Position numbers and translations under genes: made by a program. Shown here in pieces: positions 18,796 through 49,295 of a DNA stretch of 64,000 nucleotides (positions are counted from its first letter, which is position 1; every line of letters begins with the position of its first letter). The notes under the pieces are model-generated. The model had not been told where the DNA came from and ran no database searches. It saw only the letters and a list, made by a program, of their open reading frames with translations. The DNA is from a phage, in sequence record PZ379075.1. One strand, 5' to 3'.

Positions 18796-18975
18796 ATGTT
18801 ATCAGCAATCGTATGGGGTATTTGGGCTATCTTTATCGGTGGTGGTATTTATTGGGCTTCTGGTAAGCTTATTGAAGAAACTCCTGATAAGAAAGGTGAG
18901 ATTCAAACAGCATCAACCATCATGGTTATCGTAGCTGTTGTTATCCCATTCCTGCTTCACCTCCTGACTGCATAA
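18796..18975 (+). CDS. small predicted membrane protein (59 aa, two hydrophobic helices)
   Basis: ATG-initiated ORF in a gap; hydrophobic segments IVWGIWAIFIGGGIYWA and IMVIVAVVIPFLLHLL. Preferred over the overlapping track ORF 18662-18934, which runs into the Dps gene. Confidence 0.35.
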   Translation: MLSAIVWGIWAIFIGGGIYWASGKLIEETPDKKGEIQTASTIMVIVAVVIPFLLHLLTA

Positions 18976-27942: not shown

Positions 27943-28358
27943 CTTATATCCTTTACTTTTTAGCTTTCTTAGGAATAATCTTTTTATCTATTATTCTTGA
28001 ATTTGGTTTAAGTAGGTTAGTTAATTATTTAGGTAATAAGTAATTAATATTCTTTTAAATAGAGAATCAAAGTCCCTAGGAGTCCCTACAACCTAAATCA
28101 AGGATTCCTTAATTCTCTATTTTTATCTCGCAGGTGGCTCCTGCCCTTCGGTACTTGCAAGGGATTCTGTGAATTGCCCAATATACAAGCCTGCAATAAC
28201 TTTATCAGCTATACAATATATACATTACTAGTGTGTTATATCTACTACCAAAGATACTTATATTATATAGTACTCTTATCGGTATAAGCGTAATGTATAC
28301 TATACATAACCGCTCAAAGAGAGCAACAATCTTTCAAATTAAATAAGGAAATTAAAAT
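27943..28358 (+). promoter_or_regulatory. AT-rich structured intergenic region (candidate promoter cluster or replication origin)
   Basis: About 415 bp without ORFs; 11-bp inverted repeat aaatagagaat (28057-28067) / attctctattt (28112-28122) flanking a tandem direct repeat agtccctagg/agtccctaca (28071-28090); further short hairpins; AT-rich TATAC-type repeats 28190-28320. Confidence 0.4.
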
Positions 28359-29105
28359 ATGTCTATGATTCCAACTATCGCAACTGCTTCCCGTAAATCC
28401 AACTACGATGTAATCCCTGATGGTGAATACGAAGCACGTATCGTTCGTGTAGTAGGTTTGGGTGTTCACAATCGTGACCCTTGGATTGACCCGAAGACCA
28501 AAGCAGTAACTCCTAAGAATCCGGCTTTCCGTATGGATTTAGCTTTCGAGCTGATTGGTGTTGATGCTACTGGTAAAGATTCCGATGGTAAGGCATTAGA
28601 ACCACGTCCAGCTTGCCAGTTCAAGAGCTATGATGTAAACCCACGAGCTAAGAACTCTGGTATTCTTGATCTTTGCAAAATGATTGACCCAAGTATTCAA
28701 GCACTGAAAGGTGATCTGTCTTGGTTCAAGGATGTTCTGTTAGGTCAGCCTGTTAACATTCTGGTTAACTCTTATACTAACAAATCTGGTGAAGTTAAAA
28801 ACTCCATCAAGACCATTTCTCCAATCCCAACCAAATATCGTGCAGCAGTTGGTGAAGCTCGTAGTCCTCTGGTATTCTTCGAACCGTATGCTGAAACCGA
28901 TGAGAACGTAGCATCCTATCAACTGATGTTCCCGTTCCAGCGCAACCTGCTTACTCAAGCTAATGACGCTAAGAACATGCCTCTGGCTGGTCGTGAAATT
29001 ACTCGTGCTTCTGAAACAGAGCAGAAAGAAGCTACTCCTTCAATCCCTACGATTGATAAAGAGCCTGCTTCTACTTACGAAGACGACAACGATAGCCCAT
29101 TCTAA
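28359..29105 (+). CDS. putative single-stranded DNA-binding protein (acidic C-terminal tail)
   Basis: 248 aa, isolated between a long AT-rich upstream region and a strong terminator; C-terminus TYEDDNDSPF resembles the acidic, aromatic-terminated tails of bacterial and T7-type SSBs. Inference from the tail and context only. Confidence 0.4.
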   Translation: MSMIPTIATASRKSNYDVIPDGEYEARIVRVVGLGVHNRDPWIDPKTKAVTPKNPAFRMDLAFELIGVDATGKDSDGKALEPRPACQFKSYDVNPRAKNSGILDLCKMIDPSIQALKGDLSWFKDVLLGQPVNILVNSYTNKSGEVKNSIKTISPIPTKYRAAVGEARSPLVFFEPYAETDENVASYQLMFPFQRNLLTQANDAKNMPLAGREITRASETEQKEATPSIPTIDKEPASTYEDDNDSPF

Positions 29106-29126
29106 TAACTCTCCTTGTTATAGCTT

Positions 29127-29150
29127 AGCCACCTCCGGGTGGCTTTTTTC
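29127..29150 (+). terminator. intrinsic terminator
   Basis: agccacc-TCCG-ggtggct followed by TTTTTT. Confidence 0.6.
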
Positions 29151-29162
29151 GTTGGAGACAAC

Positions 29163-29513
29163 ATGCAAAACACATTAAGTGATAACTTAGGGTTTATCGT
29201 TTTCTCAGCTCTTGTATTCTTTGGTGGTATGAAGTTTAACGAATATCAAACAGACAGCAGTAATCTGGACAAAGAGAAGCACCAGCAAGAGTTAGAGATT
29301 GAAAGAAGTAGAGCAGCTGATGAAGTTGCTCAGAGAGTTCTTACCGGTTTATCTAACTGGAAGAAGAACACGGAAACCGTTTATAAAGAGATGCATTATG
29401 AGAAAACTAAACCAGTTTTTTATAATGTCTGCGCTAGTGATGAGTATGTCAGCTTGTTCAACGAGCGACAACAGCAGGCAATCAATGCCCTTACCAACAA
29501 ACCTAAAAGCTGA
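29163..29513 (+). CDS. putative i-spanin (Rz-like)
   Basis: N-terminal transmembrane helix (LGFIVFSALVFFGG) followed by a charged coiled-coil-like domain; contains the start of an out-of-frame lipoprotein gene. Confidence 0.45.
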   Translation: MQNTLSDNLGFIVFSALVFFGGMKFNEYQTDSSNLDKEKHQQELEIERSRAADEVAQRVLTGLSNWKKNTETVYKEMHYEKTKPVFYNVCASDEYVSLFNERQQQAINALTNKPKS

Positions 29514-29657
29514 ATGTAGGGTTGACCTGCCTCTTTTAGAAAGTGCTCAAGGAAAAGCATTAGCCACTACGTTGGAGTGGTATCAGGACCAGTACACAGA
29601 ATGTGCTGCCAATCACAATGGATTGTTAGAAGCTCTGAAAGAGCGTGGAATAGAATA

Positions 29658-29658
<1 letters not shown>
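29398..29658 (+). CDS. putative o-spanin (Rz1-like lipoprotein), overlapped with the i-spanin gene
   Basis: Starts inside 29163-29513 in another frame and extends beyond it; signal peptide plus lipobox-like MSAC then Pro-containing mature region. Confidence 0.45.
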
Positions 29659-31144
<1,486 letters not shown>

Positions 31145-31154
<10 letters not shown>

Positions 31155-31681
31155 ATAAGTTTAACCTTATGGAAGAAGAGATTGCTGATCTGTGTCACAA
31201 ATTAAGAGATAAGACCAGAACGATTTCTATGTTACGTGCAGTTATTGATAGCTATCGTAAATCTGTTGAAGAAATCTCTTCGTGTTCTGCTGATACAGAA
31301 ATTCGGTATGCAATGAAAAGGTTGATAGTAAAGCCGCCAGTAGGTGAAGAGTATCCAATTTATTCCTCTGTTCCTGTAGTCAGTTTTAAGCCTACAACTG
31401 AACAAACCAGCAAAAGAAGTCCAGCTTTAGACACTATGGTTGGGGGTGCACACTATAACCCTGAATCTAAAATCATTCAGCCTGTTGAGTTTTACCATGC
31501 AAACCCTCAGTTGAACTTCCAACAAACCAATATGATCAAATACGCTTATCGACACAAAGATAAGAATAAGGTTCAGGATTTGTTGAAGGTTGTTCACTAC
31601 GCCCTTCTTGAGTGTGGGTTTGAATACCCTGAAGAGTATGATAACTTCCGCAATGAAATCCGTAAGCTGTTAGGAGAATAA
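31145..31681 (+). CDS. hypothetical protein
   Basis: 178-aa ORF. Confidence 0.5.
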
Positions 31682-33662: not shown

Positions 33663-36600
33663 TCACTCCTTAGGTCGAACTCTTACACGGAGTCTCGATT
33701 GACGCTTACTGCGTTCAAGCTTCTCTGACAATGAGCCACGTTTAATCTTCGGCTTCCCTTCGTCATTAAACTTCTCCAAGAACTGCAAGTACTCAGTACG
33801 ATTCGTTGTCTTGTAAGAAGGAATCTTAATATCAGGGTTCTCTTCAATTACACGTCTCATCTTCGCTACATCATCCCTACCAAGCAACTTACTCTTAGCC
33901 TGTTCAGCTGTAGAACCAAAGATCTTCTCCAGTGCTCTGGATTTGTTACCACCTGCGGAAGAAGCACCAAGTTTAGCAATGGCAGAGTAATCATCAGCAC
34001 TAAACCAAGCTACCGGATTATCACCATACTTCTTCTTGTTTTCAGCAGCAGTCTGCAATGCACGTACAAAGCGACGGTTGTTACCAGCCTTATCTGCACC
34101 ATGAACCCTGTCTAAAACTTCAGCCACACTAGCCAACTCATCCAAGCTCTTCCCACTCAAGAAAGCTTTCTCTACTTTATCAGCAAAAACCTCTTCCTGT
34201 TGTTTAATGCTTTCCAAGATATCAGAATTTGCTTGAGATCTTTCATCATCAGGCAGAGCAGAACGAATCTTCTCCATCTCCAACTCTTCCTCTTGCAGTT
34301 TCTTAATATCAGAGTCAACCTTCTGAGCCTCCTCAATAGCCTTCCTAGTATCCGCATCCAAGTTATCAAGTTTACCTTCAGTATCTCCAGTAACCTTAAC
34401 AATCTCTTTCTCGATAGGAGTCATTGATTCGTACTTCTTAGCGAACTTCTCAACATCAGCCTCAATACGAGAGCGAGCATTCTGATGTTCAGTTGGAGTC
34501 ATAGGCTTCTCGAGAAGTGCATAACGGTTATCCATATAGGAACCAGCAAACGCTTCAGCATCCTCTCTAGATATGCCCTTATCTTCCATAGTACGCATCA
34601 GGCGGCGATGAATATCATCACGTTGACGTTGTACTGCCATAAGATCATTCTCACGCTCTTGGGCCGCTTTAAGCTCTTCACTGCGCTTAACTCTCTTGTC
34701 CACATCAAACTTGCGGTTCATCTCTTCCGCTTGCTCATACATCTTGTTCCACTTAGCCTGACGAGCATCTTCCTCTGCATCAGTTAAACGACGCTGACGA
34801 TCAAGGTAGTCTGACTCGGCGTTATGGATACGTTCAATGTAACTACGGAACTTCTCTGGAGGAACTGGAGAGTTCTTATCGTGGTGAGCAGCCAACTGTT
34901 TCAGTGTACGAGATTCCTGAGCCTCACGAACAGGTTTAGGTAAACCTTCCATCATCTTCTCAATCTCACTCTTCTGAGCTGCAATAGCCTCTAGAGTTTT
35001 ACGTTCATTCTCAACAGCAGCTTTAGCATCCGAACGAGCCTGAGCCTTTTTCCTGAGTGTAGCAAGACGTTCTTCACGAGCCTGTAAATGCTTAGCAGCA
35101 GCTTCGTACTGAGAGTTCTTGTTAGCTTTGTTGAAGGCATTCACTTCTCTGTTATAGGTGTTAATAAACCCATCCCAAATATCCTTCATCTGACCAACTT
35201 CCAAAGCCTCTTCCCTACCAGCCTTCTCTGAAGATTTAAACTTTCCATCTACAAAGTCATTCATCAATTTACGCATAGCGTCTTTCTGAGCAGGACGTAA
35301 AGGTTCTGCATCAATCAAAGTATCAATCTCAGACTGAAGCTCTTTCTTCTGGTCAACCAGCTTAGGAGCATTCTTGTTATCGAAAGCTTTATTCTCTTCT
35401 AGAGCTTGTTGGTACAGTCTATCAAACTCATCTTCACGCTGCTTCTGATACAACCTTTCAGCACGACGTTTCAGACTATCCAAGTTAGTTACGTTCCCAC
35501 CTAAACCTTTCTCTTCAGCACGTAATGCCTTAGTAGCAATGTCTTCTGGCAGACCACGTTCTTTAACCCATTCAGCAAAGTTAGTTCGTACAGTGTTGTT
35601 CTTAGCAGTAGCAATACCTTGCTGAGAAGCCAGCTGGTTACGAGCCATTTCTTCATGACGTTCAGTGTTGATAGCATTATCTTCCTGACGAATACGACGC
35701 ATCAGTTCCTTAGGATCACCTTTATAGGCCAAGAAGTTTTCAGCAGTAGCTTTAGCTTTAGCAGCCTTAGAGTACAGAGAACGAGCAAAACGTTCTGCAC
35801 GATCTTTAGTAGCCTGACGAGCAGCACTAGACATAGCAGCTAAACGTTCTACACCACTTGCCGGTTTAACGTCCTGTACAGCTTCCTTAGGAGCTTTAGG
35901 AGCACGAGCAGGTAATGGCTCAGCTTTGACTGTTGGTTCCTCTACGGTTGGTTCTGGAGCCTGTGCGGCCTCTTCTTGAGCACGTTGCTGTTCCATTGCA
36001 CGACGCTCCTCTAGAGGGTTACGAGCAGGGAGAGGTTCAGCCTGTGGAGTTTGTTCGACCGGAGCTTCTTGAGCAGCCAATGCCTCTTCTTCAGCGCGAC
36101 GCTGTTCAGCCTGACGGATAGCGCGTCTTTGCGCAACTAAATCACGAGCTGTAAGAGGAGTTTCTTGAGGAGCAGAAGAAGGAAGATTTTCTTCCGTCAC
36201 AGTACTAGAAGAAGGCTCCCGAACCGGTTCGGTTTCCACGTCATTTTGCGTCTTAAATTTAATGTCATCAACAACTGGTTCTTCTTCCATTTTAGCACGA
36301 GCTTCATCAGCAGTAGATTTAGCACGAGCAACTTCCAAATCACCACGAGCAAGAGAGCGGATAGCTTCGCTGTTAGATTCTTGTTGCTTAACACGTTGAG
36401 AGCGAGCACGCTGAGAAGAGAAGCGATTCAGAGCATACTTAGCAGCACCAAGAGTGTTCATTACCAGACTAGGTGAAGAAGCCTCACGGAATCCATCATC
36501 AGTCAGGGAAGTCCAACCACGGTCTTGATTGCTCATGAACTTAGCTGTATTGTTCAGAGTGTAAGCATCTTGAATAGGATTAAAACCTTCAGGCATACCT

Positions 36601-48555: not shown

Positions 48556-49047
48556 TTAATATTTACCTTCGGTATAAAGATTAGCTTCTGCAACTCTTCT
48601 GTTATGAAGACCCTGACTTCTCTGCTTCTCTCCCTTGACCGTTATTTTATCCCAACGAAGAAATTCGGAATAAACATCCCCCTTAACATCTCCATTGATT
48701 ACTTTCCTTAACTTAGATGTGCTCAAAGCACCACTGCCAACGTTGAAGTTGAAAGAAGTGAGTGCATCAAACTCATGAACTAGCAAAGGAACCTTTATGT
48801 TCTTCTGAGTAGCACGAACAGAGTCTTGTGTGTCTCTATCTAGCAGAGCTAGACAATCCTCTATAGAATACGTTAATCCTTGTCTAACCGGATAACCATT
48901 CATATCACGCGTAGCCCCTACACATATAGTCCAGATACCTGCGGAATCTTTATAAGCCTTGGTTCTCATACCCTCATGCTTCATGATGAATTCCATTCCA
49001 GCTGGGCTTAAGTTTAGTTGTACAGGTGGCAATGCGGCGTTATCCAT
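48556..49047 (-). CDS. lysozyme (glycoside hydrolase family 24-like endolysin)
   Basis: MKHEGMRTKAYKDSAGIWTICVGAT matches the E-(8)-D/C-(5)-T catalytic region of T4/lambda-type lysozymes. Confidence 0.65.
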   Translation of the reverse strand: MDNAALPPVQLNLSPAGMEFIMKHEGMRTKAYKDSAGIWTICVGATRDMNGYPVRQGLTYSIEDCLALLDRDTQDSVRATQKNIKVPLLVHEFDALTSFNFNVGSGALSTSKLRKVINGDVKGDVYSEFLRWDKITVKGEKQRSQGLHNRRVAEANLYTEGKY

Positions 49048-49076: not shown

Positions 49077-49295
49077 TTAAGGTAGTATCTTTCTCAGAGC
49101 GTTAGATTCAGCATCAGGACAAATAACAACTAGATTATTTTGAATGGTTCGCTGCTTACATTGAGAACTAAGTTTCTCTACTGGAGCAGGTGCTGTAACT
49201 AATGGATGAACTGCGCTTACAGGGATTGCAGTAGATACCACGACTCCTGCACCTAAACAAACTAAACCATATACAGCTTGTTTCATCATTTTCAT
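49077..49295 (-). CDS. small membrane or secreted protein (possible holin-like)
   Basis: 72 aa; N-terminal hydrophobic segment AVYGLVCLGAGVVVSTAIPV; directly upstream of the lysozyme gene. Confidence 0.35.
   Translation of the reverse strand: MKMMKQAVYGLVCLGAGVVVSTAIPVSAVHPLVTAPAPVEKLSSQCKQRTIQNNLVVICPDAESNALRKILP

Follow-up and report, generated by a model that had tools for sequence, protein, structure and literature searches.

The locus at 29163-29658 on the plus strand of the 64-kb stretch of phage DNA analysed here (the window) is very probably the two-component spanin of a phiEco32-like podophage (Kuravirus). It consists of two overlapping open reading frames, found where the original prediction had placed them: 29163-29513, which encodes the inner-membrane subunit (i-spanin), and 29398-29658, in the +1 frame, which encodes the outer-membrane subunit (o-spanin), with an overlap of 116 nt. 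They are the counterparts of phiEco32 genes 39 (i-spanin gp39) and 38 (o-spanin gp38), and are predicted to serve this phage of E. coli or Shigella in disrupting the outer membrane of its host at lysis. The reading of these frames as a spanin pair, also put forward in the original prediction, is supported by the transmembrane segment (TMD), the lipobox, the overlap, the cysteines, selection on both frames, a match to the profile phrog_1152, homologues in lysis cassettes and the published curation of phiEco32.

Shigella phage ShigP1 (PQ818763.1; Kuravirus, Gordonclarkvirinae) has the same sequence over 28300-31200 (100% identity), and Escherichia phage phiEco32 matches it at about 98%; at least 80% of this region is covered in 69 phage records. 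Gene 39 is labelled 'Rz-like spanin' in both the ShigP1 record and the phiEco32 RefSeq entry, and gene 38 is an 'o-spanin' in ShigP1 and a 'hypothetical protein' in phiEco32. PhiEco32 appears among the 'overlapped' two-component spanins of Kongari et al. (2018; PMC6139136), whose Table S4 contains the entry 'Phieco32 ovl', with the i-spanin at 35417-35768, the o-spanin at 35272-35533 and an overlap of 116. In the same work the phiEco32 i-spanin is placed in family JH2, together with Felix O1 and its relatives, and the o-spanin in the four-member family NJ01 (NJ01, ECBP2, KBNP1711 and phiEco32). The paper on Kuravirus ZCEC16 used DeepTMHMM and SignalP 6 and reported an N-terminal TMD in the i-spanin and a lipobox in the o-spanin. 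In the paper on Kuravirus vAPECPW12, the holin and endolysin map to about 2.2-2.9 kb, and the o-spanin maps to about 21.8 kb of the complementary strand. The pair is therefore already known, having been catalogued in 2018 and annotated in newer records, and for this reason it is an ordinary pair without novelty. We found no experiments on the phiEco32 gp39/gp38 spanin family in the literature searched. Compared with phiEco32 gp39/gp38 and the equivalents in NJ01, KBNP1711 and ECBP2, the pair in the window is the same, with products of 116 and 86 residues, equal starts and the same 116-nt overlap in the +1 frame. It differs from phiEco32 by one i-spanin residue (S49N) and one o-spanin residue (T22M). 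There is no difference of substance, and the window represents another isolate, identical here to ShigP1.

The i-spanin gene, homologous to that of phiEco32 gp39, runs from ATG 29163 to TGA 29513 and is preceded by a Shine-Dalgarno sequence, GGAG, at 29154-29157. The protein was expected to be membrane-anchored, and it has one hydrophobic segment, LGFIVFSALVFFGGM, at residues 9-23 (29187-29231), which is the sole hydrophobic stretch of the 116 residues. On the Kyte-Doolittle scale it averages 2.23 over 15 residues and 1.55 over 19. With 15 residues the hydrophobic core is short, and a hydrophobic N-terminal segment is found in all eight aligned i-spanin homologues. Net positive charge is absent from the N-terminus, as Kongari et al. 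(PMC6139136) also remark, so that the positive-inside rule does not fix the topology, and the orientation of the protein is presumed. The profile phrog_1152, 'Rz-like spanin', is matched with an E value of 2.7e-37 (residues 3-116 on positions 6-127 of 127). The single cysteine, Cys90, belongs to the residues that are invariant in an eight-phage alignment (K81, N88, C90, Y95, N100 and E101), all of which lie in the block EKTKPVFYNVC.SDEYV.LFNE.

A single-sequence AF2 model of low confidence (pLDDT 56), which we take as weak support for helicity only, places helices at residues 3-25, 36-76, 79-91 and 93-111. In the tables of Kongari et al. (PMC6139136), Jpred assigns 54 of 88 residues to helix, and Pepcoil predicts 0 coils for phiEco32 and 1 for the near-identical NJ01. 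These data lend weak support to a mostly helical periplasmic domain. The original description of a coiled-coil protein is confirmed in part only: the low-confidence model gives helices, and a coiled coil is not robustly predicted.

The o-spanin gene (phiEco32 gp38 with its start corrected) runs from ATG 29398 to TAA 29658 and encodes 86 residues. Its N-terminus, MRKLNQFFIMSALVMSMSAC followed by STS, has a charged start, a hydrophobic core and the lipobox MSAC, which occupies residues 17-20 (29446-29457) and includes Cys20, the predicted lipid-attachment site. The anticipated signal peptide and lipobox of the inner frame are therefore present: MRKLNQFFIMSALVMSMSA followed by C fits the classical lipoprotein pattern (PROSITE PS00013 form), with two K/R within the first seven residues. 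The predicted layout is a 19-residue signal of the SPII type and a mature lipoprotein of 67 residues beginning with CST. Position +2 holds Ser and not Asp, as in lipoproteins sorted to the outer membrane, and it is S or T in all eight o-spanin homologues. Further cysteines occur at positions 40 and 69. Profile matches were obtained with phrog_2425 (E 3.5e-27) and with phrog_456, 'Rz-like spanin' (E 1.3e-3). The residues invariant in the eight-phage alignment are C20 (the lipid Cys), T22, G52, C69, N74 and L76, and the conserved block reads LEWYQD.Y..CA.NHNGL. The tetrapeptide MSAC is invariant in all seven Kuravirus loci, and phage SU7 has LMAC; more distant relatives have MSGC, ASC, SAC or AGC. 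The lipoprotein pattern is rare in the 64-kb window: of 1169 six-frame start sites that open at least 50 codons, 4 match it. Of these four, only the o-spanin frame overlaps a membrane-protein gene at its 3' end; the other three all lack a clean N-terminus of the signal-peptide kind.

The start codon deserves attention. An AAGAG motif resembling a Shine-Dalgarno sequence lies at 29386-29390, 7 nt upstream of ATG 29398, and Kongari et al. (PMC6139136) marked AAGAG likewise for NJ01, ECBP2 and KBNP1711. Their Tables S1 and S4 give the equal o-spanin start for NJ01, KBNP1711 and phiEco32, a start that the curators had moved upstream; for lipoprotein signals they relied on LipoP. The database coding sequence corresponds to 29485-29658 (174 nt, 57 residues, beginning MPLPTN), and in it both the signal peptide and the lipobox are lost. 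This short form is annotated in phiEco32 gp38, ShigP1_00076, SU10, EC.W2-6 and 101114BS3; Bas88 carries a still shorter version and HC-25922 none. A start equivalent to 29485 is misannotated and too late. By stripping the signal and the lipobox, it leads pipelines to call the gene 'hypothetical' or to predict a soluble protein. We also considered starts further upstream, ATG 29320 and TTG 29299, and rejected them: stops close the frame within a few codons 5' of ATG 29398 in the diverged Kuravirus group. A start at ATG 29425 (MSALVMSMSAC...) would have neither the charged N-terminus nor the Shine-Dalgarno motif and is less likely.

The overlap itself provides evidence on both genes. It spans 29398-29513 and encodes residues 79-116 of the i-spanin in frame 0 and residues 1-39 of the o-spanin in frame +1. 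Codon positions were compared over seven Kuravirus loci, namely the window, phiEco32, EC.W2-6, TH43, 101114BS3, Bas88 and HC-25922, the last four being the diverged group, which is about 80% identical. In the part that encodes the i-spanin only, 73 of 235 columns are variable, distributed 24/11/38 over the first, second and third positions of the i frame. The overlap has 21 variable columns out of 116, mostly at the third position of the i frame, which is the second position of the o frame and lies inside the substitution-tolerant signal peptide. Past the i-spanin stop, variation tracks the third position of the o frame, at 15/6/34 (55 of 145 columns in the part that encodes the o-spanin only). 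Judged by codon position, both frames are coding and under purifying selection. A lipobox-bearing frame in this position is more than chance.

These counts bear on the possibility that only the outer frame is a gene and that the +1 frame is either a chance frame or a 57-residue soluble protein without a signal, starting at 29485. The GenBank and RefSeq records, including phiEco32 gp38, ShigP1_00076 and many others, do carry the 174-nt version. We nevertheless find this explanation scarcely credible. ATG 29398, the signal and MSAC are conserved in all seven Kuravirus loci examined, with the upstream frame closed by stops in the diverged group, and the lipid Cys is invariant in eight phages. The third-position variation after the i-spanin stop is that of the o frame, Kongari et al. 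(2018; PMC6139136) explicitly moved the start upstream in compiling their catalogue of spanins, and phage SU7 has exchanged its signal for another one that also bears a lipobox. The codon positions, the invariance of the Cys and the case of SU7 together refute a chance frame or a short 57-residue product.

In Escherichia phage SU7 (Suseptimavirus; NC_070980.1), the equivalent of 29163-29658 (688-1725 of the extracted stretch) carries an HNH endonuclease gene (phrog_99, E 2.5e-48) inside the former spanin overlap. Relative to phage 101114BS3, which is 98% identical, SU7 has an insertion of about 514 nt, with one copy of a duplicated 31-nt piece of the overlap on each side. The left copy has been recoded at third positions of the i frame and still encodes FNERQQQAA, after which the tail of the i-spanin is new. 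In the right copy the o-spanin reading, ACSTSDNSRQ, is preserved. The N-terminus of the SU7 o-spanin is a different signal peptide, MLTKKKQKSCLVIFLASSLMAC, in which the lipobox LMAC is retained, and the 3' end of the HNH gene encodes MLTKKKQKSCLVIFLASSLMAC in a different frame. The overlapped pair has thus been made a separated one in which both genes and the lipoprotein signal persist. Because both genes and the lipobox survived the disruption of the overlap, the SU7 case argues strongly that each gene is needed and that lipidation is the property under selection. The SU7 genome paper makes no mention of this split by an endonuclease. A second, independent HNH insertion is present in phage SU10 (1016-1429 of the extracted stretch), in the gap that separates gene 40 from the terminator upstream of the i-spanin gene, at a site equivalent to about 29106-29110 of the window. 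The independent insertions in SU7 and SU10 suggest that homing endonucleases have a hot spot here.

Relatives of the pair are widespread. By tblastn, the i-spanin is found in 435 phage records and the o-spanin in 254. Relatives at about 28-43% identity occur in Felixounavirus and Kolesnikvirus (Ounavirinae), Nonanavirus, Sashavirus, and Proteus and Klebsiella phages. We looked closely at seven further phages, and in every one the two genes lie next to each other; in six (the exception being SU7) the o-spanin gene, in the +1 frame, shares 107-179 nt with the 3' end of the i-spanin gene. Homologous pairs (31-43% identity) in Sergei, SP069 and Proteus phage ZX7 are located directly 3' of holin and endolysin genes, and the curators of the Sergei record noted a TMD and an SPII site at residues 19-20. 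These three lysis cassettes are the best available contextual evidence for a role in lysis.

The pair of Felix O1 and other Ounavirinae (Felix01p014/p015; Erwinia phage phiEa104 gp014 with an under-annotated o-spanin) is homologous in both subunits, at about 28-33% identity. It shares with the window a +1-frame overlap (107-137 nt) and a common motif and Cys. As in the window, it lies apart from the endolysin. Its neighbours are early-type genes, which in Felix O1 and phiEa104 include a polynucleotide kinase and a macro-domain 'phosphatase', away from a lysis cassette. The difference is that these phages are myoviruses. The o-spanin similarity is weak, and for this reason the window type and the Felix O1 type fall into separate o-spanin families in Kongari et al. 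(PMC6139136). In phiEa104, as in the window, a macro-domain gene is located directly 3' of the pair. The gene in the window (29658-30098, plus strand; PF01661, E 8.2e-11) starts on the o-spanin stop (TAATG), and phiEa104 gp016, the macro-domain 'phosphatase' (1998-2780 of the extracted stretch), is weakly similar to it (26% identity, E 3e-6). Given this arrangement in both genomes, the spanin pair and the macro-domain gene may travel together. The diverged Kuravirus group has a 74-residue gene in place of the macro-domain gene.

We infer the lysis function of the pair from its architecture and context, which leaves room for another explanation, namely that the two are envelope proteins with a role outside lysis, for example a lipoprotein that excludes superinfection or masks a receptor, as T5 Llp or Cor does, together with a membrane partner. 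The position of the pair among middle-class replication and regulation genes, beside the phage sigma factor and not beside the holin and endolysin, would agree with such a role, as would an i-spanin with no coiled coil predicted by Pepcoil in phiEco32. Against this stand the homologues of both subunits in the holin-endolysin-spanin cassettes of Sergei, SP069 and ZX7, and the combination of obligate pairing, +1-frame overlap and conserved periplasmic cysteines, which are hallmarks of spanins. The T4 spanins are likewise unlinked from e and t, and the lipobox-pattern scan of the 64-kb window yielded no other plausible lipoprotein frame or spanin candidate. We therefore consider a role outside lysis very improbable and retain the assignment as a spanin.

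The pair resembles lambda Rz/Rz1 in its predicted functional class and topology, in that a type II inner-membrane protein and an outer-membrane lipoprotein are encoded in the same DNA, the latter in the +1 frame, and in that both proteins have periplasmic cysteines. In contrast, Rz1 is fully embedded and belongs to the late S-R-Rz/Rz1 cassette, whereas the genes in the window are overlapped and unlinked. The original wording 'embedded/overlapped' is thus correct in its second half only, the o-spanin gene running on to 29658. Neither spanin in the window has a Pfam match to lambda Rz (PF03245) or Rz1 (PF06085) at E <= 0.1, and sequence searches of Pfam, NCBIfam and the PDB with both proteins returned no informative match. 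Weak matches to DUF3290, Mfa1 and others were far below the cut-offs and were disregarded. The label 'Rz/Rz1-type' accordingly holds for the architecture and does not extend to the sequence: the pair is an analogue of Rz/Rz1 by architecture, not a detectable homologue. The T4 pair PseT.3/PseT.2 is similar in being unlinked from the other lysis genes (e and t), and differs in that its genes are separated, not overlapped, with no sequence relationship seen.

The proposed split of the lysis functions over two modules is confirmed by the positions of the remaining genes. The endolysin (GH24/phage lysozyme; PF00959, E 3.6e-32; phrog_7 endolysin, E 3.9e-46; annotated in ShigP1) is encoded at 48556-49047 on the minus strand, and a small hydrophobic protein at 49077-49295, also on the minus strand. 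The two lie among tail genes on the strand opposite to that of the spanins, 18.9-19.4 kb away. The small protein has 72 residues and one N-terminal hydrophobic segment, and we refer to it as a putative holin on the strength of its annotation (phrog_11161 'holin', E 2.2e-47; ShigP1). Its N-terminus, MKMMK...AIPVSA followed by V, fits a cleavable Sec signal peptide equally well, and DeepTMHMM predicted a signal peptide and no TMD for the homologue in the 2026 Kuravirus ZCEC16 paper. The adjacent endolysin has no hydrophobic N-terminus (maximum 19-residue hydropathy 0.82). With the annotated holin doubtful and the endolysin of this kind, a true holin is still needed. Several small membrane-protein frames on the early/middle strand could be alternative holin-like candidates; one of them, a 59-residue frame at 18796-18975 (plus strand), has two strongly hydrophobic segments, MLSAIVWGIWAIFIGGGIYW and, further on, IMVIVAVVIPFLLHLL. 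Spanin genes unlinked from the holin and endolysin are an established arrangement. In T4, pseT.3 and pseT.2 are located away from t and e, and in Proteus phage Privateer the spanins are about 12 kb from the endolysin.

The original prediction had assigned the pair to an early-strand module, which disagrees with the literature on phiEco32 and SU10: genes 25-68 of phiEco32 belong to the middle class, as cited second-hand in the SU10 and gp79 papers (PMC4281155, PMC12276001). According to the same papers, the phage sigma factor gp36 recognises middle and late promoters through the motif tAATGTAtA. A match to this motif, TAATGTATA, was found by motif search at 28291-28299 on the plus strand, upstream of gene 40, and would be the nearest candidate promoter for a transcript reading through into the spanin genes. 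It lies in a 315-bp intergenic region (28044-28358) that contains TAATGTATA on both strands, at 28291 (+) and 28227 (-). The copy on the minus strand would drive antisense transcription into genes 41 and 42. Gene 40 itself (28359-29105, plus strand) encodes 248 residues and matches phrog_6599, with no Pfam or PDB match; its acidic tail, ...STYEDDNDSPF, is reminiscent of the tails of ssDNA-binding proteins (T7 gp2.5, bacterial SSB).

Between gene 40 and the i-spanin gene, a terminator scan identified a strong hairpin of the intrinsic-terminator type, AGCCACC-TCCG-GGTGGCT followed by T6, at 29127-29149 on the plus strand. Its folding energy is -17.3 kcal/mol (z -3.2); it ends 13 nt 5' of the i-spanin start codon, and the GGAG sequence comes next. 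The stem, the T-run and the Shine-Dalgarno sequence are invariant in nine Kuravirus and Suseptimavirus genomes, with one loop change only, whereas the coding flanks differ by about 20%. Such an invariant terminator directly upstream suggests that read-through supplies the transcripts of the spanins and of the macro-domain gene behind them, starting in the middle phase. A sigma-70-like match at 29398-29426 and a terminator-like match at 29516-29530, both within the genes, are attributed to chance, the scan having given fewer promoter-like sites than shuffled sequences. Further downstream, a near-consensus sigma-70 promoter (30070-30099, plus strand; TGGACA, an 18-nt spacer and TATAAT, 11/12 matches) lies just 5' of the phage sigma-factor gene (30118-30765), in agreement with the SU10 paper. 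After the GTP-binding-domain gene, the window has a 531-nt gene (31151-31681, plus strand) that is also present in ShigP1 ('hypothetical protein'); at this position phiEco32 carries a dNMP-kinase/ATPase gene of 894 nt (gp34).

By the Rz/Rz1 paradigm, we propose that the i-spanin gp39 would be held in the inner membrane by its anchor, the helical domain projecting into the periplasm, and that the o-spanin gp38 would be lipidated on Cys20 and sorted by the Lol system to the inner leaflet of the outer membrane. The C-terminal parts of both would then bind across the periplasm, through the peptidoglycan mesh. Candidate contact blocks are the two conserved ones described above, that of the i-spanin ending in LFNE and that of the o-spanin ending in NHNGL. 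The conserved Cys90 and Cys69 probably give homotypic disulfides that stabilise the complex. As long as the wall is whole, the complexes would be kept inert. Release of the late-expressed endolysin (48556-49047) and the resulting degradation of the wall would let them collapse and fuse the inner and outer membranes, completing lysis.

In lambda, spanin complexes are inert until the endolysin removes the peptidoglycan mesh. Because the complexes are inert until the wall is degraded, early synthesis of spanins would be harmless and late timing unneeded. A place in a middle operon, behind a conserved terminator and 19 kb from the holin and endolysin, would therefore fit. Going further, we offer as a tentative and rather doubtful idea that the Kuravirus pair is deliberately uncoupled from the other lysis genes and pre-loaded at a low level, and that an HNH insertion of the SU7 type is a route between spanin architectures. 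The terminator would limit read-through, giving a low level of complex from the middle phase that is pre-loaded into the envelope. In SU7, a homing endonuclease would have turned an overlapped pair into a separated one and supplied a new lipoprotein signal from its own 3' end.

For the biology of spanins, the pair adds nothing new to the concept. Its practical value lies mostly in annotation, as the o-spanin start can be corrected in many Kuravirus records. The split in SU7 and the invariant terminator are small by-products of possible interest to lysis specialists, and the SU7 case, if true, would provide a concrete route between spanin gene architectures.
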